DNA of 64,000 nt from NCBI GenBank assembly GCA_964035575.1, contig OZ037845.1, forward strand, positions 1,488,001-1,552,000, read 5' to 3'. The notes under the pieces were generated by a model. That model made no database searches and was not told where the DNA came from. It was given only the letters and a program-made list of their open reading frames with translations. This DNA comes from Rhynchopus sp. YZ270_cl-10 (taxonomy: Eukaryota). Position 1 is the first letter of the stretch; the number at the start of each line of letters is the position of its first letter. The position numbers and the translations under genes were made by a program. Of the stretch, positions 2,909 through 59,743 are shown in pieces.

Positions 2909-4847
2909 GCACGCAACGAACACTCATCCCCTGTGTCAAAAGGACAGCCGCACTGAGTTGTGCAGGACACAGGCTTGGTTTCTAGTTGCGATATGATTCA
3001 TGTTTGAAAACGCAAAAAAAAAAAAAGCAAAAACAAAACAAAAGAAAACAATCAATTTTCAAAGACTCCAAAAAAAAAAAAGGCATACACAAATTCTGAA
3101 CAACCCCCCTTAACCCCTCCTTCCCTCCTTGTATCTGTTACTAAATTGTAGACATTTTGTACACTGTGCTTGCGCGAGGGATATAAGCCCTCACCGGGAC
3201 CATTTGGTTCTACAATTTGCGCAAGAAGAACTGCATTTAATGTCGTGCTCCCTCATCCCAAAAGATGCTTGTTTCGTTTGCTATTGCCGGATGTGTCCTG
3301 AAGACGTTTGTAGGCGTAGTTGACGGAATTTTGTTTCATTAAAATGAGTTTTATTTTTTGTTAGAAGCAGTTGCAAAAAAAAAAGTATCAGCCGGCAGCG
3401 GGGAGGGAAAAAATATATATCAAAAAAGAGAGAAAAAGGAATGTACCGAATTAATGTCTGGCGGTGTGATATGTAGCGCACCGTGCAAACCCTCTTAGAG
3501 ATGATCAGACATAACGGAAAATACAACGACCATTTTTATTTTATTTTATTTTTTGCAGAAAATAGATTGACAGCAGTTTTTTTGTGTTGAAAATCATGGA
3601 AAATGTGCTGTCATATCGGTGACTAAGCACGACAGGCTTAGGTTCGTTTCATAAGATATTTTTTTTCTTTTTTCTGCGTTTTTTCCCCATCTTTTAGGAT
3701 GCCTGCAATGCATGTTCATCTTTATTTTCATCTTTCAAGTTTCCCCCCCGGTGCCTTTTTAGCAGTGGAGCTGCGAGCCGTGGATGCACTGTTCACACAT
3801 TTTTTTTAAATTTTTTTTTGAAAAAAAAATATGTGTGAAAAGTGGTGTAGAATTTTTCGTTTGGGTGTCGTGCCCACCTCCTGGAAGTGTCTATGCCGTC
3901 ATTTAACGGCAATGATTATGTTCCTGCTTACAGCCCCCCTCGTGGTGACCGTGTGCATACCAAATGGAGTGATCTCTGGGGTTCGATAACCCGCGAAGAA
4001 TCGTGCTTGCGTCCATTGATGAACGGTGAGGCGGTTGCACTTTCAACTTCTCTTTAACTTCACTTTCAGACAAAGGCATGAATGGTTCTTTTGTTTTTAT
4101 TTAGTATGTGAAGTGTCCAAGGGCAAATACATCTTTCAGATTTCTTTCAAAACTTTTTTGACTATTTTTTTTTTTTTTCCTGCAGTGGCTTCTCTTCGTC
4201 CCCTGCCCCTCACTTTTTTTTATTTTTGCCCAAAAAAGGGAAGAAGAAAAAGATGTTTATATCTTCAACACATTCATCTGAGTTAGATTTATATCAAAAA
4301 AGCAAAAAAAAAATAGCCTTTTTTCTTTTCACAACAAGTGTATCTAGTGTGGTTTCCTGTTTTCATTTTTTGTTTATTGTTTGAAAAAACCAAACCAAAG
4401 TTTTGAAAGTACAGATGTGTTTGCCCAGGACTATTTCATGTTTCAAAGTGGTAAATCGAAAACGAAAGAACAAAGATCACGATTCGATAAAACCAAGAAT
4501 GGTCCCTTGAGCCCTTTCTCATCTCTGAAATATAAAAATATAGTGTGGAGTTCATCCTCGGGTGGCTACACTAATACAACCAAGTTTTCAAAACTATAAA
4601 ATAAAGTCTCCATCTCACCACGAGACTTGAATACCAGCACTTCCCTCTCTCCTTTGGGTCCCCCAACTCACCCCCTTTACTATTTTTAAAACGCTTTTTT
4701 TGTGTATGTTTTTTTTTTTCTCTCTCTTTTCTTTTGTCCAGTTTTGAAAAAGAATTACCCCTCCGATTTATCTCATCATATTTAATTTTTCTCTGATAAC
4801 CACCATTTTTTTTCTTCAGGCATTCTCCAAAGTCGGTAAGAGCAATA

Positions 4848-6275
4848 ATGGCAGTCGCGTCACCCATGCCGATGGTGGCGATCTTTGCGCTGTTCCAGCT
4901 GGCCCTGTTGCTGCTGTATGTGTTCTTGGTTGAGTTCCCTGAGGAGTCGGAGATCCAGACGAGCGTCAGCGAATTCACCTTTGCGGGGCTGTACAACTAC
5001 TGGGTGGGTGTGCACATCTTTTTGCTCATTGGTATCGGCTTCCTTGCGTCGTTCCTGCGTAAGTACAGCCTGACTGCAGTGGCGTACAACTACCTCCTTG
5101 TTGCCTTTGCCCTGCAGTGGACCATCCTCGTGTACCACCTCTGGCAGCGTGCCTTTGAGGAGCAGGTCCAGGGCCGCTCAATGTACGACAGAATCCAGAT
5201 CACCACAAAGGACCTTGTTGTCGGCGACTTCGGAGCCCTGACAGTGCTGATCTCCTTCGGGGCGGTGATGGGCAAGGCTGGGCCGGCGCAGCTTCTTGTC
5301 ATGGCGATCATTGAGATCATCATCTCCGAGCTGAACAACGCCATTGCGTACTACGAGTACGAGGCGATTGATGTGGGTGGTGCCACGCAGGTCCACCTCT
5401 TTGGTGCTATCTTCGGGATTATGGCGGCGAAGTTCTATATGTCGGCAGATGAGGTGAAGGAGAAGGATAAGGACAACGGTCTGCAGCGCCGTGCCACCTT
5501 CGCGCACTCCGCCCCAAGCGACCAGCTCTACGTGGCGCGCAACAACTACATCTCCTCCAACAGCACCACCGACACCTTCGGCATGATCGGAACGCTCTTC
5601 CTTGCGGTCTTCTTCCCTGCCCTCAACGCTTCCATGACCGTCGGATACGCCAGAGAGCGCGTCGTGATCGGCACGGTCCTTGCAATGTGCGCCTCCACCA
5701 CTATGGCATTCACCGTCTCAGCAGCCCTCCGTGGCGGGAAGTTCTCGATGGCGGACATCCAGGCCGCAACCCTCGCAGGAGGAGTCATCATCGGGGGGGT
5801 CACCTCTGTGGTGTCTCATGTGTGGGTGTTCATCCTGCTCGGGATGCTTGCGGGGGTGTTGACCGTCGCAGGGTTTGTTATCTTCACGCCGATCCTGGAG
5901 GGTGCAGGGATTCATGACACCCGTGGAGTGTTTTGGCTTCATGGACTCCCCGGGTTTGTGGCAGGTATTGCGAGCTGCATTTCACAGCGCATGGCGAACG
6001 GAACAACGATCTTCGGACAGTCCATCGGTGTGTTGATCCCTGCACGCATGAACGACGACCGCATTCCTTCGTACCAGAGCGCGATGCAGGTTTCTATGCT
6101 CTTCACGACCATCGGTATGGCACTGGCAGGAGGTATCCTTGCAGGCATCGTCATGAGATTCGTCCCCAACATTGGAGATGATGAGCACCCCGTCTTCGAC
6201 GATGCACGCTACTGGGAGGAGCTTGCGGAGGGCAAGAAAAACGATGACGATATCCCGCTTGAGATCGACGCCTAG
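4848..6275 (+). CDS. Rh50: Divergent Rh-type ammonium transporter paralog (475 aa)
   Basis: Colinear with 1529..2908; keeps HLFGA and LHGLPG histidines and the YWEELA...LEIDA tail. A T-tract plus CAG at 4806-4819 is a possible splice acceptor. Confidence 0.92.
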   Translation: MAVASPMPMVAIFALFQLALLLLYVFLVEFPEESEIQTSVSEFTFAGLYNYWVGVHIFLLIGIGFLASFLRKYSLTAVAYNYLLVAFALQWTILVYHLWQRAFEEQVQGRSMYDRIQITTKDLVVGDFGALTVLISFGAVMGKAGPAQLLVMAIIEIIISELNNAIAYYEYEAIDVGGATQVHLFGAIFGIMAAKFYMSADEVKEKDKDNGLQRRATFAHSAPSDQLYVARNNYISSNSTTDTFGMIGTLFLAVFFPALNASMTVGYARERVVIGTVLAMCASTTMAFTVSAALRGGKFSMADIQAATLAGGVIIGGVTSVVSHVWVFILLGMLAGVLTVAGFVIFTPILEGAGIHDTRGVFWLHGLPGFVAGIASCISQRMANGTTIFGQSIGVLIPARMNDDRIPSYQSAMQVSMLFTTIGMALAGGILAGIVMRFVPNIGDDEHPVFDDARYWEELAEGKKNDDDIPLEIDA

Positions 6276-8060
6276 AATTTGAAAAAAAAAAAAACACCGC
6301 CCACCAATGGGCGATAGTCGATTGGATTTTAACAAAAAAAAGCAACAAAAAAAAATGTAACACCACTTGCCTCGAGAAAAGGGCAGATTTTTAAAAAGCG
6401 TTTAGATTTTTGAGAGGGAAAAAGATAGGTTCGGCCCCTTCCTGCTATGGTTGATAGCCAGAGATAATAGGTTTTTCATTTTAATGGAACACTTCGTAGG
6501 GGATGGCCAAGAGTGCGATGGTAAAGCAGGTCGAGTACAACCCTCGGGTAGGGCTCTCTTCTATTTTACCACAAAATCATATAAAGATTTCAAAAGAGAA
6601 AAAAAATAGAAATTTAATGGCCATGATCGATTATCAGAAAAGTTAAAACTACATAAAAATGTGTTCGTCTGTCAAAAAAAAGTAAAACAGAATATATCTC
6701 GTGTAACTCATAGCAGATGGCTGCGTGGGTTTTTCAAAAGAGTATTGGAGCACAACAGCTTTCTGATGGACATCTTCTTGGGGGAGAAAAAGTAATCGTC
6801 TTTTCTTTTCTTTCTTTTTGGGGCATTCGCCTCAACTTTCGACCTCTCTTTTTCTCTCTTTCTCTCTCTCCCTTTTCCCCTTACCCCAACTTCTCTTGTT
6901 TTCGGTTCTTGTAACTCCTTAAATTTTTTTTTTTTGATTCTGTTTTTTGTTGTTTTTGAGGATGGATGAATAACCTTTAATTTCTTCAATATACGGACGC
7001 GTTGTCCTTTTAGCGTAAAAGAAATTTGCCGCAGAGATGACGGAATTCTTTTAAAATAAAAATGGATAAAAAAAGGGATTTGTGTAAAGCCCGAGATAAA
7101 AAAAGGGCAGAGCGGAGCTCGTAGTTAGATCCAGAGCTCAGGTTGTAAGGTGCCACGGTTTTTTCGTGATGGCGTAATGTCATAGCGTTGGCTGTGGGTT
7201 AAAACATCTTACATCAAGAGCTGACAAAAAAAAACTGTTGAGAGATGATTTGTAGCTTTACCTTTGAAAAATTCATTAGCCTTCAGGCGACTTTGTTGTA
7301 GCAAAGCCTGTCTTAGGACAGATTGTCGATACTGCAAAAAAGAATAGATCAGACAAGATACAAAACGCAACATAAATGGGGAGGAAGGGGGGGCAACGTC
7401 TGATATTAGCGAGGTGAGAAAGGGGAATCTGAAGCTGGAGAGGCTTTTATCTTGTTGGGGAGCAGTGTTTATTTTTTTTTATTTATGGGTTACGCAGAAC
7501 TTTGTGTTCGAGAAGAGCACATTATTTTTTAATGTTTTTCTCCTCTCGAAAACGAGTTTCGGCGTTGCTCTACACAACGTAGTTCTCTCTCGTTAAAGTG
7601 ACTAAGCACAGAGAGGCTTAGATTCGTCCTAGGGGGTTTTCGTTCTTTGTTATGTGTATCGTGTGTGCACTCGTTTTTTTTTTTTTTTTTTTTTTGCGAA
7701 GGTTTCTTTCTTTCCACTTATTTCTCTCCTTTTTAAAAATACCCTTCTCCATTTTTTCTGATTCCAACAACGTGTCACCAAACCTCCTTCCAAGGAGAAA
7801 AACTTCTTTTTAACCATGTTGTGGAATATAATTAGGGAAATTCAAAACACAAAATATATTCTAACACAAAACGGAAGGGGGGCGGATTTTTTTTTTGACG
7901 GATTTTTTCTCTTCTCCAGCTTCTTTTTGTCTTCTTCCCTCCCCCCCAAAAAAAATCATTTTTTTTTTTTTTTGTACATTTGGAGGAAGAAGTGAAGAGA
8001 AGGTAAATAACATTTTTTTTTTCTTAGATGTGTCGCCTTTTTATCCCCCCTCACCCCTTC

Positions 8061-8213: not shown

Positions 8214-9128
8214 TCCCTAAAGGATTCCTTTTCTTTTCTAAGATGAACCTGCATCGATGAGGCGTTTTCATTTCTCTTGCAAGGATTCCTTTTTCTCTTT
8301 TTTGTTCTCGATAACCCGCGGGAATTGGTGCATCCAGACGTGCACCTTTTCTACCCCATTTTTTTTTCCGTTTTTTCTTTTTTTTTTTCTCTACAGAGTA
8401 CTTGCCATTATTTGTGATGGCAGAGAAGTGTTTTCTTGTACCCCACCACCACCACCCCCACGTCAAGACCCCTCCCCTTACTCCTAATGCCTTTTCTTTT
8501 GTGAACAAAAGCTTACACCAAAATAACCCCCCTACGCGACACTACCCCCCTCACATACCGGAGCTTGACAATACAGGGAAAAAAAAAACAGTAAAATACA
8601 ACAAAAGCTTAAGATAAAAAACGCTTCCCATTTTTGTCCCGATTTTTTTTTGTTTCCACACTTTGTTCCATGATGTAAACCTCGAAATGGATTGTAGGAC
8701 TGCATGGTTGGGGAAGTCCACCCCGGTACAGCGCTTGTCTTTGCGTTGTACTACGGCAAAAGGCAGACTGCTGAGGATACGTATCCGCTCGAGGCGCGAA
8801 GTCTGTTGTGCTCATGTCCTCATTAAGTATCGCTTCTTCGGGTTGCGGTCTTTGTGAGGCGTGTGTATCTCAGATTAGTTTACGTAGGGTGCGCACCGAT
8901 CATTGTACCAAAAGGTACATATTGTCACGAAAAAGGGCTTTGTATTTCAATTTTTTTTTCTTCCTTCTTCAACAAATCCTTTTCCAGAACACTATTAAAA
9001 AACACACACTTTCCCACTCCCACCCTCTACGAACCCTTTTGGAAATGAGGGTACAATAGATTGACTCTTTATTACCCCAGTCTATTTTTTTTCTTTTTTT
9101 GTTTCTCTCTTTTTTTGTTTCCTTTACT

Positions 9129-11887: not shown

Positions 11888-13532
11888 AGCTTTCTGCCGG
11901 CCGCAACAACGGTATCCAAACGAGAGACAGACGATGATAGCTGCAAGGTCACAGCGTGGTGACTACACAGGGACCATTAACTTTTGGTGGAAAAATGGAA
12001 CCCAAAGGCATTTGGCCGCAAATGCCGACCAAGTATTGCAGGTACTGATGAGTATGTCGTTGTGCCACTACTAGGCTGCCATTGGTTGGAAGACCGTTGA
12101 CGTGCTCATGAGTGTGATTGGGGGTTGGGGGAAACTGGGCTGGGGGGGTCTAAGGGTTAAGGGTAGCAAAGGTTCTTGGGATATGAGGGTTTATTCATCT
12201 GACCTTTTCATTGTTTTTCGATACTCCGTAAAGACCCCAGGTCGCAGCTGTGCTTCAAATAAGTTAGCATATGGGACAGGGTTCTCTTGCAAAGGACATC
12301 TCAGGGGAATGTGGTTGAGGTTTCAATTTGAAAATTTGAAATTTCTCTTTTATGGTGACTAAGCACAGAGAGGCTTCGGTTCATCTTACAATAAAAATAC
12401 ATTCTCTTTTATTTTCATAATGCACCACTGAAGGGGGAATGAGGGTGGGCGAAACAGCTGTTGTGCACACAGCTCTCTCGAGGCTCATCATGTCATATTT
12501 CTAACAATTTCTCAAAAACTACAAAAAATACATACTCGAAACTTGAAAAAGTGTCCAAAGGGATGTGTTCCCATCAGGATTTCGTTCTTTTTTTTCTCAA
12601 AAAAAACTGTTCGTTTTGTGTTTGCCTTCTTTTTTCACGGTTTCCTCATGATTATGAGTAATCTATGATTTGTTTTCGTGTTGATAGGGTGACCTTACCT
12701 TCTCAGTTTTTTAGCTTAATTCTGAGTCGATGATCGCTTGGGGGGGGGATATGGTGAGTGTGTTAATGTATGGATGTGGTCCGCTTAACGGGAATGAATA
12801 AAAAAATGCAGTTTCAGTATTGCAAAAAGAAGGAAAGTGTGCAAATCGGGGCACCTCTGGCAGCAATTTTAATTGGTTGTTCAAAACGGTGGTGCCTCGT
12901 TTGTTTTGTTTGCGTCTTTCAATGTTACCTTTCCTCCCTTTTATATCTGTAGGGTACGTATGGCTGCAATGCAGTCTTCACTGTGCATTCCTTCGTTTTT
13001 GTTGTTGAATTCATGTTTTTTTTTAAAGCCTGTTGGTTACCTGCAAGCCCCACCGAAGCTGCGTTGACCACATTATATGCCACTGCCTCTTTAACAAACC
13101 ATTCACGTTCACTCACTGCTTTTCTCACTCTTTGAGTAATGCTGGAGACAACAAGGCATGTTCAGTAGTGTTTCGTGTGTCGCTTTTTCATCAATTCACT
13201 GTATACACAGCTACTGTAAACAGCCATCTTGTGCCAGTGTGCACGTGCTGCTTGTCTCCACGCTGCTCAAAGCTTCTCAGTGTAAGCTAACAAACAAAAA
13301 GTTGATACTAAACCACGTGTTCCCACTCATCTTCGATTGCAGCACGTTACTTTAGCAATTCTTTATGAAATCACCAATAACGGTGTACGATGCTCAGTGT
13401 GGGGTACGTGCTCAACTCGGTCAGAACAAAAAAGAACTGTACCATGTTGGCATTCTTTCCTCCATCCCCTATACCCCAAGTACACAAAGCTCCATTACAC
13501 CATTCAGCGTATCATCAAGAACCAAACAAACC

Positions 13533-15360
13533 ATGGCTGAGGCAAAGCACGAGCCCCGTGACCACGACTCCTTCCAGGATGACACCCTCCCCGACGACGT
13601 CAAGGTTGTCCCGTCTTTCGACGAGATGCCCCTGCACACCAACCTTCTCCGTGGAATTTACTCCTACGGGTATGTAGTCTTTGCTTCACGTCTTTGCTTC
13701 CTTTCCTGTCACACAAGACTTTTGTAATCATTTCACCCCCACCACAGATTCGAGAAGCCGTCTGCCATCCAGCAGCGTGCGATCATCCCTTTCATCAAGG
13801 GAGGTGACCTGATCGCCCAGGCCCAGTCCGGAACCGGCAAGACCGGAGCCTTCACGATTGGTCTCCTCCAGCGCATGGACTGGACCAACCGTGCCTGCCA
13901 GGGACTTGTCCTCTCGCCCACCCGCGAGCTGGCCACCCAGACCGAGAGCGTGATCTCCTCCATTGGAGAGTACCTCTGTGACGGACCGTTCTGCCACACC
14001 TTCGTGGGTATGTTGCTTGTTTTGTGTTTTATTTTGCGTCTGTTGTTTTGTCTCGTTTGGGTCTGTGATGACATTGAATACACCGCAACGGTCTGACCTG
14101 CTTCTTTGCGATGCTTACAACCGTATTGACGTCCCCTTCATTGGGGGCAACTGAGATCCTCTCACCTGTGTGTTCCCTTTCAACTGTTTCCAGCGCGCCA
14201 TGTGTCCCCTTGCTTCCACATGAGGTACGGGTCAGATAGGATCGCAAGACACCCATCCACACAAAGCTTCACACCACGCAGTAATGATGATATTGTAAAT
14301 ACATCCGCAACGGTCTTGATGAGCCTGTTCGCAGGCGATGGTTAGAACTCTTTCTTCGTATTACACTGACACTCTTCACTCTGTCGTTTCCGTCATTTTT
14401 TTGTGTTTAGTTGTTTGTTTTTGTGACCTGACACTTTTGCACCCTTGTCTTTTCTCACCACAGGAGGAACCCGTGTGACTGACGATCTCGCCAAGCTCCA
14501 GAAGGGAGTTCTGGTGGCTGTCGGAACCCCCGGACGTGTGTTCGACGTTATCAAGCGTGGAGCCCTGAAGACCGACCACCTTAAGGTATGCAAGAAAGCC
14601 CGTTGACGACAACACCAACAACACAGCACACACACGACACACACACACACACAACACACAACACACACAGGTGCTCTGCCTTGACGAGGCTGACGAGATG
14701 CTTTCCCAGGGATTCTCCGAGCAGATCTACGAGATCTTCAAGTTCCTCCCCAAGGAGGTGCAGGTGTGCCTGTTCTCCGCCACCATGCCCCCGGAGGTGC
14801 TGGACCTGACCCAGAAGTTCATGCGTGAGCCCATCCGTATCCTTGTGAAGAAGGAGGCCCTGACCCTTGAGGGAATCAAGCAGTTCTACGTGGCTGTTGA
14901 GGAGGAGTACAAGCTCGAGACCCTCATGGACCTGTACGACTCCGTGTCGATTGCGCAGTCTGTGATCTTCTGCAACACCCGCCGGAAGGTCGACTGGCTG
15001 TCCGAGAAGATGAACGACAAGGAGTTCACCGTGTCGTTCATGCACGCGGACATGCAGAAGGGAGAGCGTGAAAAGGTGATGAAGGTGTTCCGCTCTGGAT
15101 CGTCGCGTGTGCTGATCTCGACCGATCTGCTTGCCCGTGGTATCGACGTGCAGCACGTTTCCATCGTGATCAACTTCGACCTTCCCGCCAACAGAGAGAA
15201 CTACCTTCACCGTATCGGTCGTTCCGGACGTTACGGACGTAAGGGTGTTGCCATCAACTTCGTCAACACCAAGGACGTCCCTCTGCTCAAGGAGCTCCAG
15301 GAGTTCTACAACACCACCATCGAGGAGCTCCCCATGGACTTCGCCTCCCACCTGGAGTAG
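13533..15360 (+). CDS. eIF4A: eIF4A DEAD-box helicase copy F1 (402 aa); exons 13533-13669, 13748-14007, 14464-14585, 14671-15360
   Basis: The spliced frame restores [43 protein letters not shown] and HRIGRSGR; all introns are GTATG...CAG. Confidence 0.97.
14059..14159 (+). ncRNA. Candidate intronic box C/D snoRNA 1 (also in intron 2 of F2-F5)
   Basis: C box GTGATGA 14065-71, D' CTGA 14093-96, C'-like GCGATGC, D box CTGA 14151-54, terminal stem GGGTC/GATCC. The F4 variant keeps the consensus as ATGATGA. Confidence 0.75.
14190..14275 (+). ncRNA. Possible structured small RNA between the two C/D candidates (H/ACA- or AGA-box-like, unresolved)
   Basis: CATGTG/CACATG stem and GGGT/ACCC stem; copied verbatim with snoRNA 2 at 42849 and 43068. 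Box spacing is not convincing. Confidence 0.35.
14280..14373 (+). ncRNA. Candidate intronic box C/D snoRNA 2 (paralog of snoRNA 1)
   Basis: C box ATGATGA 14284-90, D'-like TTGA 14316-19, C'-like GCGATGG, D box CTGA 14366-69; shares CCGCAACGGTC with snoRNA 1. Confidence 0.75.
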
Positions 15361-25762: not shown

Positions 25763-26800
25763 CCCTCACAGTAAAAATAATGTTTTTTCAAAAATAAATT
25801 AATAAAAAAATGACCCAAAAGTAACATTTTTTTTGTAACAATTTAATAAAATGTTTTATTCGTTTTTTTGCAGTTGGGCAAAAAGTAACAAATGTTACAA
25901 CGTGGTGTGTTCCGGGGTATGGGATTTTACACATCTTCACACATCTTCACAACTCTTCACAACTTTTCACAAATTTTCACAAATTTTCACAACATAATTT
26001 TGGCCATATTTTTGTGAAGAATTGTGAAGAGTTGTGAATAGTTGTGAAAAGTTGTGAAGAGTTGTGAATTGAAATGAAAATTTGGATGAAAAAAACACAG
26101 ACGTTGTGAATATTTGTGAAGAGTTGTGAACAGTTGTGAAGAGATGTGAAGAGTTGTGAATTGGGAAAACCCCCCCTTTTTTTCTCCAATTCACAACTCT
26201 TCACAACTGTTCACAACTCTTCACAAATATTCACAACGTCTGTGTTTTTTTCATCCAAATTTTCATTTCAATTCACAACTCTTCACAACTTTTCACAACT
26301 ATTCACAACTCTTCACAATTCTTCACAAAAATATGGCCAAAATTATGTTGTGAAAAATTGTGAAAAGTTGTGAAGAGTTGTGAAGATGTGTGAAGATGTG
26401 TAAAATCCCATACCCCGGAACACACCACAACGAAAAAATAAAAAGCCCATGGTTGAAGCACGGGAGTACCATAGGGAACTGGGTTGCTGACCACACCATC
26501 CAGGCTGTACCTCAATTTTTTTTTTGCCTGCGGCGCCATTTTCCCTTTTTTGCTCCGCAAAAAAGGGTTCGTAGAGTGACTCTGTGTAAAAAGCTAGATT
26601 TTTACACCATGGGTTTCCGCGCTGTATGCTTTATTAGCCCCCCCAGTAACATTTTTGTTACGCCTGCGGCGTAACAAAATGTTACAAAAAAATAAAATCC
26701 AAAAAATGAAAAAAGTAACAAAATGCAAAAATGTTATAAAAAAAATAAAAATCGCCGAAATAATTTATTTGTAACAATAACATAATTTATACTATGAGGG
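25763..26800. mobile_element. Tc1/mariner-type MITE inserted in the eIF4A spacer
   Basis: TIR CCCTCACAGTA / TACTATGAGGG with TA on both sides; the empty site ATACACATAACAAGAAA is present in the spacers at ~21166, ~22475 and ~32275. Confidence 0.8.
25903..26427. mobile_element. Foldback (near-perfect palindromic) element nested in the MITE
   Basis: ~260-bp inverted arms starting TGGTGTGTTCCGGGGTATGGG; CAACG duplicated at 25898-25902 and 26428-26432; arms built from TTCACAACTC-type decamers. Confidence 0.85.
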
Positions 26801-34316: not shown

Positions 34317-36463
34317 AATCCGGATTGTTTTGTTTCTCAAGAATGCATGTACTCGCATCGTCCTGCAAGAAGCGGAGGGAGCGAGAGTGAAGACTACCCG
34401 AAAATGCCCCATCCCCCCCCTATTTTTTCCGCGTTCTTTTCCCACCCCCTTCAGTTTTTTGTCCCCATAGTTTGAGGGCGTGTCTTCTTCTTCTCGTTCA
34501 AACTGTCGTAGGAAGTTTGTGTTTTCGTGTGTCCTTTTGGTTACAAAAAGACTTTTGACGTAAACTTTACGTGACGTCTATCTATTTTTTCATCCCCAAA
34601 AAAAGAAGTTTCAGAACTTCCCCCCCTTTGTTCTGTACTTCTCGAGAAAAAAAATAACCGCGTTTCTGTGAAAGAAAGAGTACGTTGGAGTTCATCATCC
34701 CAACCCAGTATGTAGGCAGTGTAGGAAAAAATTAAATTGTCGCTGCAGAAAAAAAATTTTTTTTTGGCCGAAAAAAAAAAAATGGCGCACGAATACAAAA
34801 ATGTGGGGCGCATGACTTCATTGTTCACTATCCCATGAGGAACTGAGGGAGATAGTGAATTAGTTTTTTGTAATCGTGTGTTTGTTTGTTTTTTTTTTTT
34901 TAATGTTGTTCTTTTTGTTGGTGAAGAGAGTGGGTGGGGGAGGGGAGGTTTTGTATTGTTGCTGATGACATTATTTTATAGCTTTGTTTTTTTCCCCCTA
35001 TTTTTCACCCTTTTTTTTGACATTCCTTGGGAAACCCGCGCCGAGCACTTAAGTGGAAATAAACCTTCATATTCATTCTAAACAACACACAAATTAACAT
35101 AACCATTCCCACTTTTTTAAATAAAAAGAGCACAAATTCCCTTTACGGGAGACCACTGTCTTCTGGCAGCTAGTTTCAGGAATGTTTCAAAGAAGGAGGG
35201 AAATTGTGAAAAAGGACAACAAAATAATTGATGAGCAACATTCAGAAAAGTTGTGAGGTGTTTTTTTTTTTTTAACCCCTTTCCCCCTTTATTTTTGGAA
35301 GTCGGACGAAGCAGAAAGGACCCCTCAGAGGCAGAGAGAGTAATTGGTTTTCCACTATTTTGCTTTTTTTTTCTTTTGTTGAAAAAAAAATGGCTGCAAA
35401 AATGTGACTTATATGCGCATTTTTCTTAGTCCTTTTTTCAATGATTCTTTTCTTTTATAACAATGTGTGGCAGGGAAAACCCTCCACAGCTCCCATATTC
35501 CCCCAGCATTGGTTTGCAGTAGATCTTGTTTTGGCGTTTCTTTTTTTCTTTTTTTTTTTTTTTTTTTTTTTTTTGCTTTTGTTATTTATTGTACCTTCTA
35601 TTCAGTAGGATGGAGAGTATATGAAATAATTATGTTGCTTTTCTTTTTTACAGAGACTGTTGGAGAGAGTGAGAGCAACGGCTTTCACCCCCAACTTCCC
35701 TCTATTCATAGGTGATTAAGCAAGGTTTGCTTATTCTCATCTTATCAACATTTTTCTTTTTCTTTTTTTTGATTTTGCAGTAGTAGCTTGAACCCTAGGT
35801 TCATCTAAAATCTGCAAAATCAAAAAAAAATTTTTCTTAGTTTGGTAATGTCTACAAGGCATTTTGTTTTCCCCTCCCCTCTCCATCAGTTCCGTGCCTC
35901 AAAGGCATACATGGAGCAATATGGATGGTATAATAAAATGGAAAGGGAAAAAAAAAATCAAAATTTTCGGATGAGAGGAACACCAACCTCTCTTCCTCAA
36001 GTTGATTTTTTTTTTTTTGGAAGGTGACTGGGCAGGGGGAGGCTTAGGATCATCTTACAAAATTTTTCTCATTTTTATTTTTTTTTTTGTTTACAACGTG
36101 AAAGATGAGTGTGCCCTTCAGGTATGGTCATCTTTTACATATTATTTTTTTTTTCATTTTTTTTTTAATGTGGTTTTCTCCGATCTACGTAGGAGTTTGA
36201 GAGAAAAATCCACATTTCCCTTCCCCCCGGTTCCCCGATGTTAAAAAGACGTCTGTGTCCATGCGAGGCTCATTCGCCCTTTTTTTCTCTTTTTTTGCAT
36301 TTTTTTTTCTTGATGAATTTTCCTTCTGTGAATTTTTTTTTTTTTATATTATAGTGAAGTGTTTTCTTCGTTGTTGAAAAAAAAAAGAAACAAACAGAAC
36401 TCTTGTCGCAACCTTTTCCACCTACGACCATACAAGGGAGAAGAAACCATTTTTTAAAAGGAT

Positions 36464-37396
36464 CAGTCCTATTCGTGGTCATTTACCCCCCCCCCCCTTT
36501 GGGTCGGTGAACCGGAAATTTTGGAAATAAGGGGGTAAAATAAGGGGGGGGGGGTAAATGAGGGGGTAAGGGGGGGGGGGTAAATTACCATGTTATGGGT
36601 TAGGTCATGTTTTTGGGTGGGAAGGGGGGACTTTTTCATACACGGTGGGGTAAAATTTTGCACAACACAGTGTGACGACACATGCTCTCATGACAAATGT
36701 GTCATCTGAAAAAAATTCCTCACTTCCTTGCGACATCGCAAGCAGTCATGCATCATGGATCCACATCATCCACATCATCTTTCTGCCCGTGCCTGAACCA
36801 TGACTGGTCAGGGATCACGGTGTTGCCTCAGATTCCGTGAGGTGTCCCAAACGTATCGCCCACGCAGCACAAACGTACCCACCTGCACCCATCTACCTGC
36901 ACACGTGATGTAAAACAGGGTGAAAGATTATTTGCACTTTACCCCTTTCCTCATTTCGAGCTTGTCTCCAGCTTCAAATCAGACGAGTCCTACAGTCTCC
37001 GGATGTACGACCCGCTGAACACATCAGCCCCTCCCAGCAAACCATAAAACAAAACAGGTATGCGCTGCACTAAGTGAAACTATTACCCCATAATTACACG
37101 CCAGGTGGTGTTTTGCCACTCGTTCCCTGAACCCCCTCGCTTCGCTCGTGGGTTTAGGTCACTCGTGACAAAACACCACCTGGCGTGTTGCGGCGATAAT
37201 TACCCAAAAATTACCTGGTGGCTGGTACTTTACCCCCCCAGGGGGGTAAAGTACCAGCCACAACAGGGTATTATAAGGGGGGGGGGTAAATTACCATGTT
37301 ATTTTGGCCTGAACCGTTTTTTTCTGAAAAAGGGGGTAAAATAAGGGGGGGGGGTAAATTTAGGGGGGGGGGGGTAAATGACCACGAATAGGACTG
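36464..37396. mobile_element. MITE / non-autonomous TIR element
   Basis: ~34-bp TIR CAGTCCTATTCGTGGTCATTTACCCCC... / ...GGGGGTAAATGACCACGAATAGGACTG; AT on both flanks; subterminal GGGGGTAAA repeats. Confidence 0.85.
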
Positions 37397-38081
37397 ATAC
37401 TTTATATTTTTGCGGAATTAGATAAAAAGGAAGAGATGATGAATGGACTTCCCTTTTTTTTTTCTTTTTTTTTTTTTTCTTTTGTCTGTTTGTTCCGAGA
37501 TGTTTGCCGTTTTCCCATCCCCCGGTTCCCCCCCAGCAGCAAAGCAGGATAGTGGTTAACAGAAGGACAAGAAAAAAAACTGATTCTTCCTCTCCCCCCC
37601 CCTCCCTTACTCCTACCCCCCCACTCCCACATACCTGCTTACACGACTCTTCCTTATTACCCGCACCTCAGCAAAATTCGTGATGTAAACCACGAAAGGG
37701 AAACACATGGTTTTCAGTCCACTTCCTGGTATTCTGGTCATGCAGCAAGGTACACTGTCACAGAGACGGCTTTGTATTTCAAATTTTTGGAGTACTTCAA
37801 GTATTTGGCGTACAAAAAAAAAAAAGTCGTCAAATTACCCGCAAAAATTCTCCATGCTGATGACACCACTCTCCATCATCACAGTGCGCTTATTGCTCAA
37901 CCCCACACCTCGTATCACACCATACTGCTTTCATTCCACAAAAAATACCCCCTTTTTTTTCTTTTCCAGGTGTCCCACACAACATTTGGGGCATCGCACA
38001 CACACATTGCGTTGGACAACAACGAAGGGATGTGCCCTACCATATGCCCCCAATGAGCCTGGGTGACGCCCATCTGTAACC

Positions 38082-41053: not shown

Positions 41054-42848
41054 AACTGCGGTTGCAGTTGTCATTTTTTTTTTATTTGCAGGAACTTGCC
41101 TATGTGTCCCGATGACCCATTTCCTCCCACCCACCCGATCAGATTTAGTCAGAAGAGTTGTGCCGTCTCATGTTCCTATCAGCTAGCTTTTAGGTTCCAT
41201 GAGGCGCAGTTTTTTTTTTTTATTTTTGAAATGCTATTTCTGGACGACCTGATGCGCTGCAGTCTTTTCTGTTAGTGTACCATCTTTGTCTTAGGCGCGC
41301 ATTTTTTTTTTTTTTTTGTTTTTTGGAGAAGCTTTTTTTTTGTTTTTATTTTGAGTAAACGCGTTTTTCCGCTCTTTCGGAGTCGGGTGCGACCGTTTTA
41401 CATTTTAGTTTTTTTATTTTTTGCAACCACATCTGTCCAGAAGGCTGAACTACCCCCTTTTCTTGCCGCACTTCAACGGAGGGAAGGCTCATTTTGAGTC
41501 TTCAAGCTGTCTGTGGTAAGGCCTGGGGGTTTTTCTCTATTTTTTTTTTTTTTTTTTTATTGTTTCCCCACCCCCTTCTGTTTTCGGTTGTGTCGCAGTT
41601 AATGCTTTATTTTCATGGTTTTCTTTATCAAAGGGCAGAAGTATTTCTTTTATTTTAGGATCTTTTGGGAAGATAACGGCAAAATGCCATATTTTTTATT
41701 TGGAGTTTGTATGACAAACATTCATTTTTTTTATTTTATTTTTATCAAAGGTAACTAAGCACAGTGCGGCTTAAGTTCATCTTTCAGGGTTTCTTTTGAT
41801 TTTCTTTTTATTGGGTCTGTTGAAGGGAGACTCTTTGTAAGATCATGTGTGCACGAGAGGTTCCTTATCTTACAAAATTTTCTTTTTAATCCAATTTCCC
41901 CCCCTCCCCAACCCAGGGAAGAGTCCCCCTTTTTTGAAGAGACTCAATATGCAATAATATAAGAAAACGAAAATGGACAACAAAGAAAATAAAATTGGAA
42001 ACTTCATTTTTCCGAAGTTTTTTTATTTATTTATTTTGGGGAAGAGATACCCTACGGGTGGCAGGGTGCAAAGTCCACCGCCACAACGTTATCCCCGAAA
42101 AAAACATTTTTGTTCCCATTCTCGATGTAGTTTTTTTTAAGGTGACTAAACACGAGAGGCTTATGTTCATCTAAAAAAACTTTTTTTTTTTTTTTTTTTG
42201 ATCTGTGCACGAGAGGCACATTTCATCTTGAGATATTTTTCTATCAATAATTGAATTGGTAGAGATATCACCCATTTTTTTGGTTTTCTGTTCCTTTTTT
42301 TTTCTTCTAGAAGTTTTAGGGAAGTACTTCAAGGTGGGGGGAAAAGTAAGGGACAGACGACCTACGTACTGCTAACATTTGTTAGGTGTGTGTGCACGAG
42401 GGGAGCATTCATCTTACAAGTTTTCTTTGTTACCCACCCCCTTCCTCATCCAAAATCCCTTTTTGATTTCTCCGATCAGAACGTTTTGTGTTCCTCTGTC
42501 TTGATATGGGCCGTAGCGTGTTGGTCGGGAGGCATTTTTATTTTTATTTTTTTGCTTTCTTTTGTGGGGGTTGGGGTGTTTCTTAAGGAAATTTGTTATG
42601 TTTCCTCAAGGAATTGCATTTTCTGTTTCCAAACGAAAGCGTGGGGGGAGGAGAGAGCGGGGGTCACCCTTCTCTCTCTCTCGCTCTGCTGTGCTCTCGT
42701 CTTCCGGTTTAAAAATGGGGGAAAAAAACCAACAAGGAAAAGCAGAAAGAAAAAAAAAAATGGCGGGAAAAAAGGCAGTTGCGTAAAAAAAAAGGGTTCC
42801 CTTTTTTAAGATGTTGCCGTCAACTGTGATCGTCACTTTCAACTGCTT

Positions 42849-43031
42849 CCAGCGCGCCATGTGTCCCCTTGCTTCCACATGAGGTACGGGTCAGATAGGA
42901 TCGCAAGACACCCATCCACACAAAGCTTCACACCACGCAGTAATGATGATATTGTAAATACATCCGCAACGGTCTTGATGAGCCTGTTCGCAGGCGATGG
43001 TTAGAACTCTTTCTTCGTATTACACTGACAC
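42849..43031 (+). ncRNA. Extra-intronic copy 1 of the eIF4A intron-2 cassette (middle element plus C/D snoRNA 2)
   Basis: Matches 14190-14372 base for base by eye. Confidence 0.7.
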
Positions 43032-43067
43032 CATGCAACGGTGATCAACAGGAATACTTCGCACCAC

Positions 43068-43250
43068 CCAGCGCGCCATGTGTCCCCTTGCTTCCACATG
43101 AGGTACGGGTCAGATAGGATCGCAAGACACCCATCCACACAAAGCTTCACACCACGCAGTAATGATGATATTGTAAATACATCCGCAACGGTCTTGATGA
43201 GCCTGTTCGCAGGCGATGGTTAGAACTCTTTCTTCGTATTACACTGACAC
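43068..43250 (+). ncRNA. Extra-intronic copy 2 of the same cassette
   Basis: Tandem duplicate from CCAGCGCGCC to ACTGACAC, after a 36-nt spacer. Confidence 0.7.
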
Positions 43251-43409
43251 ACCCACACCCCCACCTCCACCTTTCACTTTCATCCACACTTCATTGTACC
43301 ACTCTTCTCCACCACACTTGCGACCTACCCAACCTCTGACCCCTTACTCCTCCCACCCACCCCCAAACATTTTCACACCTCACATCCTACAACAGACCCA
43401 CACAAAATC

Positions 43410-44839: not shown

Positions 44840-44998
44840 TTGGGCCATCTATGAACGGGGAGAGATTTTTTAGGTACACTGTCACGAGAGGACTGTTGTA
44901 TTTCAAGTCAACTTTTTTTTTCACTAGCTCTCAGTAAGCTCTCACAGGCTCTCAGAGCCTGTTGCGTTGTCTCACGGAGACGATCATAGATGGTCCAA
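44840..44998 (-). mobile_element. Short copy of the TIR element that spans 53434-60042
   Basis: Ends TTGGGCCATCTATGAACGGGGAGAGA and CACGGAGACGATCATAGATGGTCCAA match the reverse complement of the long element's ends; only ~4 decamer units inside. Confidence 0.8.
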
Positions 44999-45371: not shown

Positions 45372-46220
45372 ACATATGGGTCCGTCCGGAAACCCTCCTG
45401 GTAAGATTCATCCTTTTGGGGGTTTTTTGAGGTTTTTCTGCTCAAAACACCCAAACAACCCAATTTTTTGATACCCACCATACACCTACCACCCCAGAGG
45501 GCATATTTTGGGCATTTATTTTTGTTTATTTCCCCTCCCCCCCTTTTTACTTATATTTTTTTACGTATTTTTGGACATTTCATAAACGTGGCAATGACAG
45601 CAGTGAAGTTCACTTTTTTGTCGAGAAACACGGTAAGAATGGGTGCGACGCACACTTGGTGTCGTTTCGAACCATCTCTCTGATGATTCTTGTTGTCAGG
45701 AGATCCTTACCGTAGGGGTCATTGTCGGTGCCCTGCGCGAGCTTCCCCACACAGAGGCCTTTGTTATCTCATTCCCTCGTACTCATACGTATCAGTGCAC
45801 CCTTCTTTCCATCAATCTCTTTTCTTCTGTGTACTGCTACCCGAGCAACGGTCGTGTCATTTCAGCGTGTACTCTGACACGGAGGGAACCTTTATTTACT
45901 ATGGAGTCTCCACATCCAAGGTGACCCGCAAAGCAAAAGTCCCTGGCATTGACCCAGTAGATTTGACAGAGGTCAATGAAACCTTGTCAAGGCGGCATGG
46001 CAGGATTAAGAGAAAGAGAGAAGAGATCCAGAAGAACGACAATAAAAGGCTGAAAATCTGATTAAAAAAGCGAAAATACAGCCTCAGACCCCCCCAAAAA
46101 CCTATTTTCATATCAGAATATCACCTAGATGCACTTTTTGTGGGGGACATCATCAAAAAAACCCAAAAATACCCAAAAGGATGAATCTTACCAGAGGGGT
46201 TTCCGGACGAGTCCATATGT
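45372..46220. mobile_element. Non-autonomous TIR element
   Basis: ~50-bp imperfect inverted ends ACATATGG..CGTCCGGAAACCC..CTGGTAAGATTCATCCTTTTGGG and its complement at ~46172-46220; TSD unclear. Confidence 0.75.
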
Positions 46221-46799
46221 ATGTAGGTTGCATTCATTTTCTCGTTCTTGACGTGTGAATAAGGCACGTTCAATCTTTCAAGTTTCTCTTCGTTTTCTTC
46301 GTTTTCTTCGTTTTTTTCTCTTCAAAGGTTGACCAGGAGAGATGGAAGGTGTTTTTCTTTTGTCACCTCATGAAATGAAGGAGAAAATAGAAACAAAGCA
46401 TTTTGAACACACTTTGCGGTTCTAGGGACGACCCGCGCTGCAGAGCCACTCCTCACCCAAACAGGTCGAGGTGTGTGCGTTTCACCACAACCTGTCTCCC
46501 ATGGGTTTTATCGTGCGATGAATGTTAAGTTTCTATTTTTTCTTTTAACCGCAGGGTAGCGCCATCTGCACCACAACAAACAACTTCCTCTTTTGCCCCC
46601 CCTCCCATTTGTTTGCACCACATTTTCCCCCCTCCTTCATATTCAGCACAGATACACCTCAGAATCGTTGCCTCAATAGGGGAACAACACAATCATTCTT
46701 TTGTCCCTTCTCCCATGCTACGGCATTTGTAAAAAGGATACTGAAGCTTAGGTCAGGGATCATCTTCCAATTTGATTGCCACTTTTTGTCACCTTTCCT

Positions 46800-47222: not shown

Positions 47223-47275
47223 AAAGGGGGGAAGGGTGGCTGGGTGGGGGGTGGGGGAGGTTTTGATAGGTTGTG

Positions 47276-47306
<31 letters not shown>

Positions 47307-47517
47307 TTGTAGGGCGGCAAGAGTACGGCTTCCGTCGACTTTGCTAGACAAGTGTATTTCATTCAAAAACGTCAAGAAGAAGAAAAAGAAGAATCGGCCA
47401 CAAAATTTTGTTTGCGGTATTAGGCATTTTGATCCACCCCGCGCATTCATTGTTATGTATTTCTGTTAAGGCGTTTGGTCCTCCAACTGTACACATTGTG
47501 CGTTGCGGTTTTCCGCA

Positions 47518-50409
47518 ATGCTTTTTTCAAAAATGTCGTCGAGTCTCTCATCCATAGAGCCCCAGGTCGCTCCTTCGCCACAGAACTTTCTTTTCGTGGC
47601 ATCTGTGCTGCTCTCACTGTACTCGGCAATAGCGACTGTAGCAGCGCTGGCGATGCAGGACAGTGTCGAGATGTGGGTGTGGTTTGCATCGTTCCTGCCC
47701 ATAAGTTTGTTTTTTGCAGTGTCGTCGTTCGTGCTGCACCGTCACAAACGCAATGCACGTATCATGCATGCGTGGCTGCTGACAACAAGCATGCTGGTGC
47801 TGTATGCAGACCACATATCGAACCATCTCTACGAGGTGTGGCTGCTAAACCTTATGGTCGTTGTGCTTGCCGTCATTGTGGGGGATGCGGCCGTGCTTGG
47901 TGTTGTGTGTGCGGTGCTTGTGGTGAGCATCACTGTTACGACGGTGTGCGAGGTGTCGTCGTGCGAGGAGTTCGACTTCTTTGCCTCTTCGCAGGAGTAC
48001 CACGTGCAGTGGAATGTGGGCTGGCCGTTGTTGGTCACACGCCTTTTGTTTTCTGTGCTGCTTGTCGTGACTGTGCGGCGTGTGACGGCCCTGCGTGCGT
48101 CTTCCGAGCAGTCGACCAACATTGCCATGGAAGTTGTTGACCTGCTCGTGAGCCATGACATAGACGGTGCATACGCAAAGCTTTCTGGGGAGGAGGGTGT
48201 GCATGTATCGTCACTGTACAAGCTCATAAGGACACTGCAGCCCGTTTCTACGGAGGCAAGTCTTTTTGTGCAGGTGACCGATACGGTACACCAGGACGAC
48301 TTTTCCACCGCACCGCGCACCGGCACGCTGCGACCCAAGACCAGTTGGGTGGCGGGCTTGGGGATCGACGTAGGATCACTCTCGCGATCCGCACGTTCCG
48401 CTGGGCCTGATAACTCGTTGTCGATGGACGTCGGGTATGTCATATGCTTGATGTTTTGTTCACCACTACCACATCACATCACATCACATCGCAGGGAGGA
48501 GACCGAGTTGACAGTGGAGCTTCCCCGCCTGAAGACGAGCAGAGCCACCGTGCTCCTCATCGATCTCACGACAAACGGCAACCACACGAATGAGTCCGTC
48601 CATGTGATGCGTGGTGTGGTGACCCAGGCGTGTGCAGCGTTGGCCCGGCATTCGGGTGATGTGGTGGAGATACGTGCGAACCAGGTGCTAGCGTCGTGGA
48701 ATGTGATGAAAGCAACTGCGACCCACGCAAAGTCAGCGTGCCTAGCGGCGCGTGTGTTGATGGATGTGCTCAACGGACACGAGTTTCACTGGTGGTCCAT
48801 CACACTTTCCAGCGGGCTTGTGGACAGCTTCGCAACAGGTCCGCTGAATGCGCAGGTGATCTCAGGGATGCCTGTGGAACAGGTGCGGTCCATGTCGCCG
48901 TTGTCACTGACGATGTGCTGCCCAATCCTTGTGAGCCAAATAACGAAAGGGTTGGTGGGTGACGAGTTTTTGTTCCGTGCTATTGACGTTATATCGTATG
49001 CACCTCCAAGCTCACTGACCCAAGTTGGGGACAACGCGAACAGTGTGCTGACGGTGTACTCGCTGACAGTGGGGATGTCAGCACGGGATGTGGCGCTTTT
49101 CAACCAAGGATTCTCCCACTTCTGCAGTGGGCGATACACTGATGCACTTAACGTCTTCAAGCGTTTTGCAGAGAGTGTCCCGCACGATCTGCAGGCCAAG
49201 CGTATCGTAGCAATGGCAGAAGGGGTGTTGGATGAAAGCCTGTGTTTGCCGAATCCCTACATGAGGGAAATGCTAGAGTGGGAGAACTACGAGAACAAAG
49301 CAGTGTTTGGAGAGAGCAAATGGAGAGAGACACCAGCGCAGGAGGTTGGTCTACCGAAGCTGCAGTCAGTTCTTAGGGCCGATAAGGTTGAACGGCAGAT
49401 ACGTGCCATCTCTACCCCTCAGTCGCCAGCTCCTTCGGACAGCTCTGATTCAGAAGACTCATCGTGTATGCTTCCTCTGGTGCTGCGGGATCAGCGCGCT
49501 GCTCTCTACTTCAGATCCGACAAAGTACTCGGTGTGGGTGCACACGGGTCGGTGTGGCAGGGCATGTGTTCAAATGGCACACTGTCCGCACTGAAGTACA
49601 TACCTATCCCGAAGCAGCAAAACAGAACAACCCTGCCGAAGTGTGATGTACCATCAGCAGCCTCGTCGCTGTCCAGCTCAACTGCAACAAGGCACATCGC
49701 CCTGACTGTTCCATCTCCACGGGAGGGGGCTGCGCGCGCAATGCCCCCTCCGTCGCCACGTCGTGAGGAGACGAATAAGATTGTGCAGGAGATCATGATG
49801 CTGAGCCAGCTGGAGCACGAGAACATCGTCTCCTACCTCGGGTACTGCATGTCGTCGACGCACGTCACCATCTGCATGGAGTGTGCGAACAGCGGGTCTC
49901 TGGCGCAGATTGCGACGCAGTTCCGCGAACTGCCTGACAGTGCCGTGGCACGCTTCACACGCGACATCACCAACGGCTTGGTGTATCTCCACATGAAATA
50001 CGTTGTGCATGGTGACCTTAAGCCTGGGAACGTGCTCCTCCTCAGCGATGGCACCTGCAAACTCACTGATTTCGGGACAGCACGCATCGGGCTGAAGACT
50101 TCTGAATGCCTGGGCACACCAACGTACATGAGCTACGAGGCAGCGATGGGTGTGATCACGCCTGAGAACGACCTGTGGGCTCTGGGTGTGACGATTGCGG
50201 AGCTGCTGGAGGGGTGCCTTCCGTTCCCACAGGAGCTGCGTGGACTCTCGCAGATGCAGTTCTTAAGAAAGGTGCAGAAGGGCGAGGCGATACCAATTAC
50301 GTCAAAGCTGGACACCGCCTCGGCTGACTTTGTGCGGCAGTGCCTTCATCGTGACACGGATGCGAGGCCGAAAGCCAACACAATGTTGCTACACGCGTTC
50401 TTGCTTTGA
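47518..50409 (+). CDS. Multi-pass membrane protein with a degenerate nucleotide-cyclase-like domain and C-terminal STE/MAPKKK-like kinase; probable intron 48435-48494
   Basis: ~6 hydrophobic helices; ATVLLIDL...GDVVEIRANQVLASWN...AKSACLAA cyclase-fold-like segment; kinase motifs GVGAHG, ALK, HENIVSYLG, HGDLKPGN, DFG, GTPTYM, DLWALG. Confidence 0.9.
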   Translation: MLFSKMSSSLSSIEPQVAPSPQNFLFVASVLLSLYSAIATVAALAMQDSVEMWVWFASFLPISLFFAVSSFVLHRHKRNARIMHAWLLTTSMLVLYADHISNHLYEVWLLNLMVVVLAVIVGDAAVLGVVCAVLVVSITVTTVCEVSSCEEFDFFASSQEYHVQWNVGWPLLVTRLLFSVLLVVTVRRVTALRASSEQSTNIAMEVVDLLVSHDIDGAYAKLSGEEGVHVSSLYKLIRTLQPVSTEASLFVQVTDTVHQDDFSTAPRTGTLRPKTSWVAGLGIDVGSLSRSARSAGPDNSLSMDVGYVICLMFCSPLPHHITSHRREETELTVELPRLKTSRATVLLIDLTTNGNHTNESVHVMRGVVTQACAALARHSGDVVEIRANQVLASWNVMKATATHAKSACLAARVLMDVLNGHEFHWWSITLSSGLVDSFATGPLNAQVISGMPVEQVRSMSPLSLTMCCPILVSQITKGLVGDEFLFRAIDVISYAPPSSLTQVGDNANSVLTVYSLTVGMSARDVALFNQGFSHFCSGRYTDALNVFKRFAESVPHDLQAKRIVAMAEGVLDESLCLPNPYMREMLEWENYENKAVFGESKWRETPAQEVGLPKLQSVLRADKVERQIRAISTPQSPAPSDSSDSEDSSCMLPLVLRDQRAALYFRSDKVLGVGAHGSVWQGMCSNGTLSALKYIPIPKQQNRTTLPKCDVPSAASSLSSSTATRHIALTVPSPREGAARAMPPPSPRREETNKIVQEIMMLSQLEHENIVSYLGYCMSSTHVTICMECANSGSLAQIATQFRELPDSAVARFTRDITNGLVYLHMKYVVHGDLKPGNVLLLSDGTCKLTDFGTARIGLKTSECLGTPTYMSYEAAMGVITPENDLWALGVTIAELLEGCLPFPQELRGLSQMQFLRKVQKGEAIPITSKLDTASADFVRQCLHRDTDARPKANTMLLHAFLL

Positions 50410-50816
50410 TATGCGTACACAACTAAGGAGGGTGACTCCGTCTTGCTGTGGAGCTGAATAGCAGCAGAGAAGTGAAGCGTGTGCACGTGAGTGAGAGGTA
50501 CATTCATCTTAAAAGTTTTCTTCATTCCCGGCGGAGAACTACTAAGTTCATAAAATTTCAAGAAAGCTTTTTTCAAAAAGGTACACCCCCGTTTATTTTG
50601 CGATGTTTACTGACTTTAAAAACAGCTTCAGTAGAAGGTACAAAATCGGTTTTACGACATTCACCCAATAAAGGGAAATTACTGACGATGTCCACCCTTT
50701 TGAATACTGTATAATTCTTCCAGAAACAGGGTTACTGTTAGAAACCAATATGCCGAAAAGTTTTGATTTGCGCGGAAACAATTGCCATTTTCCTTTCACA
50801 TTTTTTGCAAAATAAA

Positions 50817-53725: not shown

Positions 53726-53733
53726 ATGACCTA

Positions 53734-59699: not shown

Positions 59700-59743
<44 letters not shown>

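Follow-up and report, generated by a model that had tools for sequence, protein, structure and literature searches.

A high-copy family of short hairpins, oriented with the genes, in the diplonemid Rhynchopus: possible promoterless micro-retroposons of T-runs

We analyzed a 64,000-nt stretch of the assembly of the diplonemid Rhynchopus sp. YZ270_cl-10 (GCA_964035575.1, contig OZ037845.1, positions 1,488,001 to 1,552,000; hereafter the window, with coordinates counted from its first letter), and found that a family of hairpins of ~41–50 nt, roughly 45 nt, dispersed between its genes is a high-copy, sharply bounded repeat. The copies have T-rich flanks and a bias toward G-T pairs, they run in gene sense throughout the window, and one of them is an insertion for which empty paralogous sites exist. 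We regard the family as real and very probably mobile. Our preferred reading, to which we assign a probability of about 45%, is that the hairpin is a promoterless micro-retroposon, expressed by read-through from polycistronic transcription and inserted into T-runs by target priming.

A first-pass annotation of the window had listed 13 intergenic copies, and at 13/13 coordinates we found the sequences it described, intergenic and on the plus strand. Two further copies were located at 8914 and 36104, along with a doubtful, degenerate sixteenth at 8241 that was picked out by eye. A covariance model made from the 15 copies, with which both strands of the 64 kb were searched with no filters, returned exactly these 15 at E < 0.01, all on the plus strand, and missed the 8241 copy; because the model was built on those copies, this recovery speaks to completeness within the window rather than to independent discovery. 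Nine more matches scored 12.4–16.6 bits (E 0.97–8.2), the best being the reverse strand of the 36104 copy. Differences in the outer and inner stems divide the family into three subfamilies, with 7 copies in A, 5 in B and 3 in C, and its density in the window is 0.83 per kb of spacer (Table 1). A candidate at 46735 was dropped, as it neither folds nor matches the model, and a short inverted repeat between T- and A-runs at 35763–35829 contains the family's 3′ words with no model match. Pattern scans of viral and of metagenome contigs for subfamilies A and C gave 0 matches in either.

Copy number and element ends were assessed in five public contig sets of the same organism, aligned at 80% identity, which contain 82–93% of the words of 41–50.6 kb; none of them is recorded as RNA, and one may be the window's own source. 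Runs X6 and X8, with small shares only, were left out of the evidence. At position 44895 the summed depth reached 507,884 in set X1, compared with ~90–100 for single-copy sequence, and 647,440 compared with ~150 in set X4. X1 contigs broke off at the 44872 copy on both sides, 91 before 44872 and 77 behind 44921, where the consensus is a T-run; the consensus before 44872 is a 5′ extension common to part of the copies. Across 42120–42440 there were 212 X1 records, 1 at ≥99% identity and 211 at <95%, with a peak depth of 63,662 versus 85.7. Those on the 42379 copy end at 42386–42389 and 42427–42431, with flanks that are T-rich on both sides and otherwise unrelated; copies 42141 and 42200 fall in the part (42120–42209) skipped as repeat in this comparison. 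Because summed contig depth overcounts fragmented repeats, we put the copy number only at hundreds to thousands of loci.

The best-defined sign of movement is the 44872 copy, which lies within a MITE (miniature inverted-repeat transposable element) and which the first-pass annotation had proposed to be an insertion. This proved correct, in that the locus reads T6, 41 nt, T9 and C, compared with T7 in the relative whose end lies near 60040. In contigs of two runs, 44865/44867 is joined directly to 44913; these are thus MITE copies that lack the hairpin and have T9 or T11, so that the gain at 44872 beyond the 41-nt insert is T only (versus T7, T9 or T11 in the empty relatives). It is because this copy sits in a MITE T-run whose relatives lack the hairpin that we consider the element to move. 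Adjacent pairs were found at 41750/41834, 42141/42200 and 36023/36104, and a tandem joint from 44921 to 44872 in other contigs; tandem and mixed-subfamily neighbours, in the window and elsewhere, would be expected if the T-run of one copy served as the target of the next. We also noted that in several contigs a hairpin copy adjoins a second very high-copy repeat (~46350–46500, summed depth up to ~600,000 in X1), which lies just upstream of a likely splice acceptor and has no Rfam match, a fold z of −1.0 and no relative within the window.

Evidence for target-site duplication is suggestive only. Exact direct repeats flank the copies at 12354 (11 bp) and 8241 (13 bp), each beating all 30 swapped pairings, against a background of ~0.4% of 5575 control positions; across copies, duplication lengths range over 0–13 with no fixed length. 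After the stem, most copies have 2–7 A-rich bases and then a T-run, and there is no tail at 44872. Filled and empty pairs were sought among the duplicated eIF4A spacers, in which 35296–36208, carrying three copies, was without a paralogue.

The strand bias of the family is greater than T-run availability explains: 59–64% of T-runs away from copies lie on the plus strand, and 15/15 copies (12 clusters) on that strand gives P ~0.002–0.005. All host genes of 1–50.4 kb, namely those for ammonium transporters, eIF4A (in a tandem array), a methyltransferase and a kinase, are likewise on the plus strand, while past 50.6 kb there are repeats and a minus-strand retroelement. Since diplonemid genes are described as co-transcribed clusters (PMC10161547), the plus strand is presumably the transcribed one, and since the window holds no minus-strand gene cluster, transcription is not separable from other chromosomal polarity. 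The gene-free, non-tandem ~6 kb past 50.6 kb contains 0 copies versus ~5 expected (P ~0.006); the abundance of young repeats in this stretch could be the reason. Distances range from 63 to 3433 nt to the upstream stop codon and from 215 to 2646 nt to the downstream ATG, with no sign of constraint. One spacer contains up to five copies, and the covariance-model scan found none in the eIF4A gene array of 13.5–34.3 kb (21 kb) or in several other spacers. The element therefore follows gene direction in the window and is not a required signal for each gene, and the earlier suggestion of an untranslated-region (UTR) or processing element is not supported as regards a required signal, given the unconstrained distances and the many spacers with no copy. 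The hairpin may have a secondary effect on mRNA.

In the family's layout, an outer stem of 5–12 bp encloses an inner one of 5–6 bp; 2–3 nt bulge out on the 3′ side, the loop is mostly purine, and after the stem come a few A-rich bases and then T-rich sequence. The stems had been described as covarying, which stands in part. On a model-fitted alignment, 79.0% of 176 cells pair, compared with 68.1% when shuffled (0/500), and 23 cells are changed on both sides compared with 9.4 (0/500); sliding the register along this alignment gives only 34–52% pairing. Because the changes fall mainly between the three subfamilies, in large part reflecting ancestry, these cells are not independent events, and the number of pairs with two-sided change on the fitted alignment (7 versus 5.6 shuffled, 126/500) was not significant. 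RNAalifold predicted no structure on a plain MAFFT alignment and 4 inner pairs only on the fitted one, and 6/16 copies, 44872 included, fold no better than shuffles. The loop, said earlier to be usually ACGAGAG or ACAGAGAG, matches exactly in just 6/13 copies. The proposed sarcin-ricin (GNRA) likeness likewise shrank to loop letters in 4/13 copies, with no match in Rfam, which gave 0 matches at gathering score in the 64 kb and, at E ≤ 10 on 41.6–45.1 kb (3.5 kb), 14 matches that were all far under gathering score and none credible. Resemblances to the sarcin-ricin loop, the U6 ACAGAGA box, group II domain V, SECIS and the histone stem-loop were dropped, as they involve few loop letters, which vary between copies.

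To the extent that the stems fold, the predictions modestly favour a sense-strand RNA over a DNA hairpin, because of an excess of G-T over A-C pairs and better RNA folding of the plus strand. The 162 hand-registered pairs comprise 102 Watson-Crick, 29 G-T, 7 A-C and 24 other pairs, with many of the G-T pairs inherited and hence not independent. With RNA parameters, the mean fold was −9.4 kcal/mol on the plus strand versus −5.1 on the minus strand, z was better on the plus strand in 12/16 copies, and z was ≤ −1.7 in 10/16; with DNA parameters the means were −3.5 (plus) versus −2.5 (minus) kcal/mol, and −2.1 for the 44872 copy.

Table 1. Hairpin copies and the host MITE in the window
Feature	Position	Strand	Basis
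Hairpin, subfamily A, inner stem CTAAGC/GCTTAG	3610..3663	+	model, 42.5 bits
Hairpin, subfamily A, outer stem decayed	7589..7643	+	model, 34.9 bits
Doubtful degenerate copy (8241), B-like, orientation uncertain, flanked by 13-bp direct repeat	8232..8285	+	by eye; no model match
Extra copy (8914), subfamily C, short 5′ extension as in loose-end consensus of other contigs	8908..8959	+	32.8 bits
Hairpin (12354), subfamily A, A-rich tail, exact 11-bp direct repeat 12343-12353 / 12401-12411	12346..12400	+	model, flank test
Hairpin, subfamily A, loop divergent	35703..35756	+	model
Hairpin (36023), subfamily A, inner stem rich in G-U, outer stem long	36015..36069	+	model, fold
Extra copy (36104), subfamily B, lowest folding energy (−22 kcal/mol, z −6)	36096..36147	+	model, fold
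Hairpin, subfamily C	37741..37791	+	26.4 bits
Hairpin (41750), subfamily A	41742..41796	+	model
Hairpin, subfamily B, outer stem perfect 10 bp, inner stem weak	41834..41884	+	model
Hairpin (42141), subfamily A, T-runs on either side	42133..42186	+	model
Hairpin (42200), subfamily B, 5′ end short, in T-run after 42141 copy	42190..42241	+	model
Hairpin (42379), subfamily B, look-alike contigs stop at 42386-42389 and 42427-42431, flanks T-rich	42377..42428	+	model, contigs
Hairpin, subfamily C, 41-nt insert between T6 and T9 within MITE; best-defined insertion	44872..44912	+	contigs, relative
Host MITE with terminal inverted repeats; relatives (53436-60043, other contigs) without hairpin = empty sites	44843..44996	.	
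Hairpin, subfamily B, loop enlarged, 63 nt past kinase stop codon	50472..50523	+	model

If the hairpin is a promoterless micro-retroposon, sense-oriented copies would be transcribed by read-through as passengers of polycistronic units, and the RNA would fold into a stem bulged by 2–3 nt on the 3′ side and an inner stem capped by a purine loop. A putative non-long-terminal-repeat retrotransposon reverse transcriptase (RT) would bind this fold, in the manner of the "stringent" long interspersed elements (LINEs) with 3′ hairpins, and a nick at a T/A run would prime copying, leaving T-only or short T-rich duplications. Successive master copies would give rise to subfamilies A, B and C with compensated stems, and the sense excess over T-run availability might arise through target access linked to transcription or because antisense copies were lost. 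Some subfamily C copies have in common a longer 5′ part, as expected of 5′-truncated retrocopies. Precedents are found in stringent pairs of LINEs and short interspersed elements (SINEs), which have 3′ hairpins with compensated stems (PMC3747384), in Entamoeba EhSINE1, whose flanks are T-rich on both sides (PMC2996970), in Leishmania SIDER2, whose copies in 3′UTRs are 82% in sense (PMC11520807), and in the LINE-type ORFs (open reading frames) of D. papillatum (PMC10161547).

Several observations weigh against this reading. At 44872, the best-defined insertion, any duplication is of T alone and there is no poly(A) tail, which fits a Helentron-type insertion equally well; this copy also folds no better than shuffles (z −0.4). 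When own and swapped flanks were compared over all 16 copies, the difference was not significant (P = 0.13 by exact match, 0.09 by local alignment); moreover, the 8241 copy was picked by eye, and 12354 alone carries a chance of ~6%. No promoter was seen and no LINE with the same 3′ end, and the only RT in the window has no model match nearby. In subfamily B the 5′ end is fixed and bears an arm of an inverted repeat, with no ragged truncation. Finally, an extra assumption is needed, because T-run availability does not explain 15/15 copies on the plus strand. The fuller claim, of a nuclear mobile element cut down to a single RNA hairpin of 41–50 nt that is promoterless, expressed by polycistronic read-through and inserted preferentially in sense, is possible, though we hold it to be doubtful.

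The RT in question is encoded by an ORF (Pfam RVT_1) of a retroelement on the minus strand at ~54620–59850 with split direct repeats, presumably Ngaro-like. An ORF overlapping it resembles a tyrosine recombinase by eye, with no Pfam match, and the retroelement sits inside a MITE-like element (53436–60043) that carries 10-bp tandem repeats. The covariance-model scan found no hairpin copy in this tyrosine-recombinase-type element (54.6–59.9 kb), so nothing links it to the hairpin family.

A Helentron-like minimal element, moved by a rolling-circle HUH protein, offers the main rival route, which we judge unlikely. Here the plus strand would be peeled off as single-stranded DNA, a Rep protein would recognise the hairpin, and the strand would be joined into a T-run with no duplication, possibly into the strand displaced by transcription. 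The 44872 insertion between T-runs, with variable T at both ends and no other target change, matches the targets of HINE, DINE-1 and HLE2 elements (PMC4067079, PMC11417382), which also have a terminal stem-loop; this agreement concerns one site only. The adjacent and tandem copies and the negative family-wide duplication test also fit, and D. papillatum has Helitron-like ORFs (PMC10161547). Against this, the hairpin lacks the HINE architecture, in which 12–15-bp subterminal repeats are accompanied by a distinct 3′ stem-loop beyond the right repeat; its outer stem encloses the inner, and the element is far shorter and has no subterminal inverted repeat pair apart from its stem-loop. In addition, it folds poorly as DNA, the mean and the 44872 energies both being marginal, the 11-bp repeat at 12354 is left unexplained, and the window contains no RepHel-coding element.

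Somewhat less likely still is a host cis-acting RNA signal for 3′UTR stability, localisation or 3′-end processing that selection maintains, any mobility being incidental or over, or else a mobile element since exapted in the manner of Leishmania SIDERs. Such a signal would account for the occurrence of 15/15 copies on the gene strand, above T-run availability, for the empty ~6 kb of gene-free sequence and for the G-U bias; the median 3′UTR of D. papillatum is near 800 nt (PMC10161547), which would place many copies probably within mRNA. It would leave unaccounted for the variable distances to stop and start codons, the 13.5–34.3 kb array with no copies beside a spacer with up to five, the copy inside a MITE whose relatives lack it, and the homogeneity and sharp ends of the subfamilies; the young repeats of the gene-free stretch could account for its zero copies.

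It is improbable that a DDE transposase moves the hairpin as an extremely short MITE, with the outer stem as terminal inverted repeat. The end arms of subfamily B are complementary (10 bp at 41834, 11 bp at 36098, and in the loose-end consensus) and the genome is rich in MITEs, but the arms are asymmetric with inherited G-T pairs (29 G-T to 7 A-C), duplications have no fixed length, and a symmetric element should not be oriented 15/15. Least probable is a self-removing, intron-like insert, its ends joined by the hairpin and spliced from sense transcripts like the noncanonical introns of hemistasiids: the length of 34–45 nt is near the 37-nt median of such introns in Artemidia motanka, whose ends pair and for which a MITE origin has been proposed (PMC12621601), most copies start with GT, and 7/15 have AG 3–6 nt past the stem, but no copy lies in coding sequence, 8/15 lack AG, host introns (GTATG...CACAG) are unlike the hairpin copies, hemistasiid intron ends are G/C-rich, and removal at 44872 would leave a 7-nt scar.

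Compared with known systems, the hairpin is not assigned to SINEs, HINEs or MITEs because it fails a defining test of each. At 41–50 nt it is too short for the internal RNA polymerase III promoter or tRNA/5S/7SL head of a SINE, and none was matched in Rfam; there is a single nested hairpin in place of the 12–16-bp (sub)terminal inverted repeats and separate 3′ stem-loop of HINE/HLE2; and neither the near-perfect terminal inverted repeats nor the fixed-length duplication of a DDE MITE was found. With the 3′ ends of stringent SINEs and LINEs (UnaL2 pairs, plant L1 ME1; PMC3747384) it shares a short 3′ hairpin with a compensated stem, conserved loop letters and dispersal as a repeat, and differs in being nearly the whole element, no RNA-gene-derived head, promoter, clear poly(A) or microsatellite tail or partner LINE having been found. 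Leishmania SIDER2 (PMC11520807) is likewise euglenozoan, lies mostly in sense between genes of polycistronic clusters, and has members as small as 44 nt; yet SIDERs are extinct, mostly 150–690 nt, and carry an A-rich tail and a 79-nt 5′ ingi/L1Tc signature, whereas the diplonemid hairpins are discrete ~45-nt units with signs of recent movement, shorter than that signature. EhSINE1 (PMC2996970), a protist retroposon, is similarly bordered by T-rich sequence on each side, where duplications are hard to make out, and differs in its 450–680 nt and its known LINE partner. By analogy, then, the hairpin would work most like a SINE tail with no SINE head and would sit like a SIDER.

Bacterial repetitive extragenic palindromic (REP) elements and organellar GC clusters or double-hairpin elements are ultra-short, non-coding, structure-conserved dispersed hairpins moved in trans. 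The first-pass notion of an ultra-short, REP-like mobile hairpin survives as to the ultra-short mobile hairpin, given the high copy number, sharp ends, empty paralogous sites and T-run targets; "REP-like" is an analogy only, with no HUH/RAYT partner seen and stems that are A-T/G-T rich and weak as DNA. The diplonemid hairpin shares the short structured form, and differs in being nuclear, A-T/G-T rich, oriented with transcription and targeted to T-runs. REP elements are characterised by a conserved tetranucleotide foot and a RAYT/HUH partner; the 5′ foot here varies between subfamilies.

By its sequence, the window is nuclear diplonemid DNA. The large eIF4A exon is 96% identical to EukProt record "Rhum"; its identity with the eIF4A of Diplonema papillatum is 90%, and with that of Trypanosoma 74%. 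The introns begin GTATG and finish CACAG, the ends given for Rhynchopus, Lacrimia and D. japonicum (PMC12621601). At 13533–41053, full eIF4A genes stand in a tandem array, interleaved with shorter, sequence-diverged paralogues in which the first few residues are joined to the C-terminal helicase domain. Intron 2 (14008–14463, and the same intron of other copies) has a conserved block with C/D-box-like words, preceded by a hairpin block; read by eye and with no Rfam gathering-score match, these are likely intronic small nucleolar RNAs, and the block is also duplicated alone as two tandem copies in the spacer at ~42820–43250. The stretches 25902–26428, 36457–37403 and 45372–46220 hold a fold-back element, whose internal repeats are 10 bp long, and two elements that resemble MITEs and have terminal inverted repeats.

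For D. papillatum, the genome paper speaks of dispersed repeat motifs, nearly 10,000 in number and uncharacterised (PMC10161547). We found no description of this hairpin family in the literature searched or in seven supplements of that paper, its Additional file 1 (repeat and UTR sections), which may bear on novelty, lying outside this coverage. If our reading is right, the hairpins would be among the smallest nuclear mobile elements, a bare recognition hairpin present in hundreds to thousands of copies, and would show the minimum that an RT (or an HUH protein) needs, as well as how promoterless elements can live on polycistronic transcription. They would also show how structured motifs come to be seeded in euglenozoan 3′UTRs, the route that turned SIDERs into regulators in Leishmania, and would provide a candidate on which the proposed transposon origin of the short paired introns of diplonemids can be tested. 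Were they excisable from RNA, they would be a living model for the origin of the short, end-paired noncanonical introns of diplonemids and euglenids.

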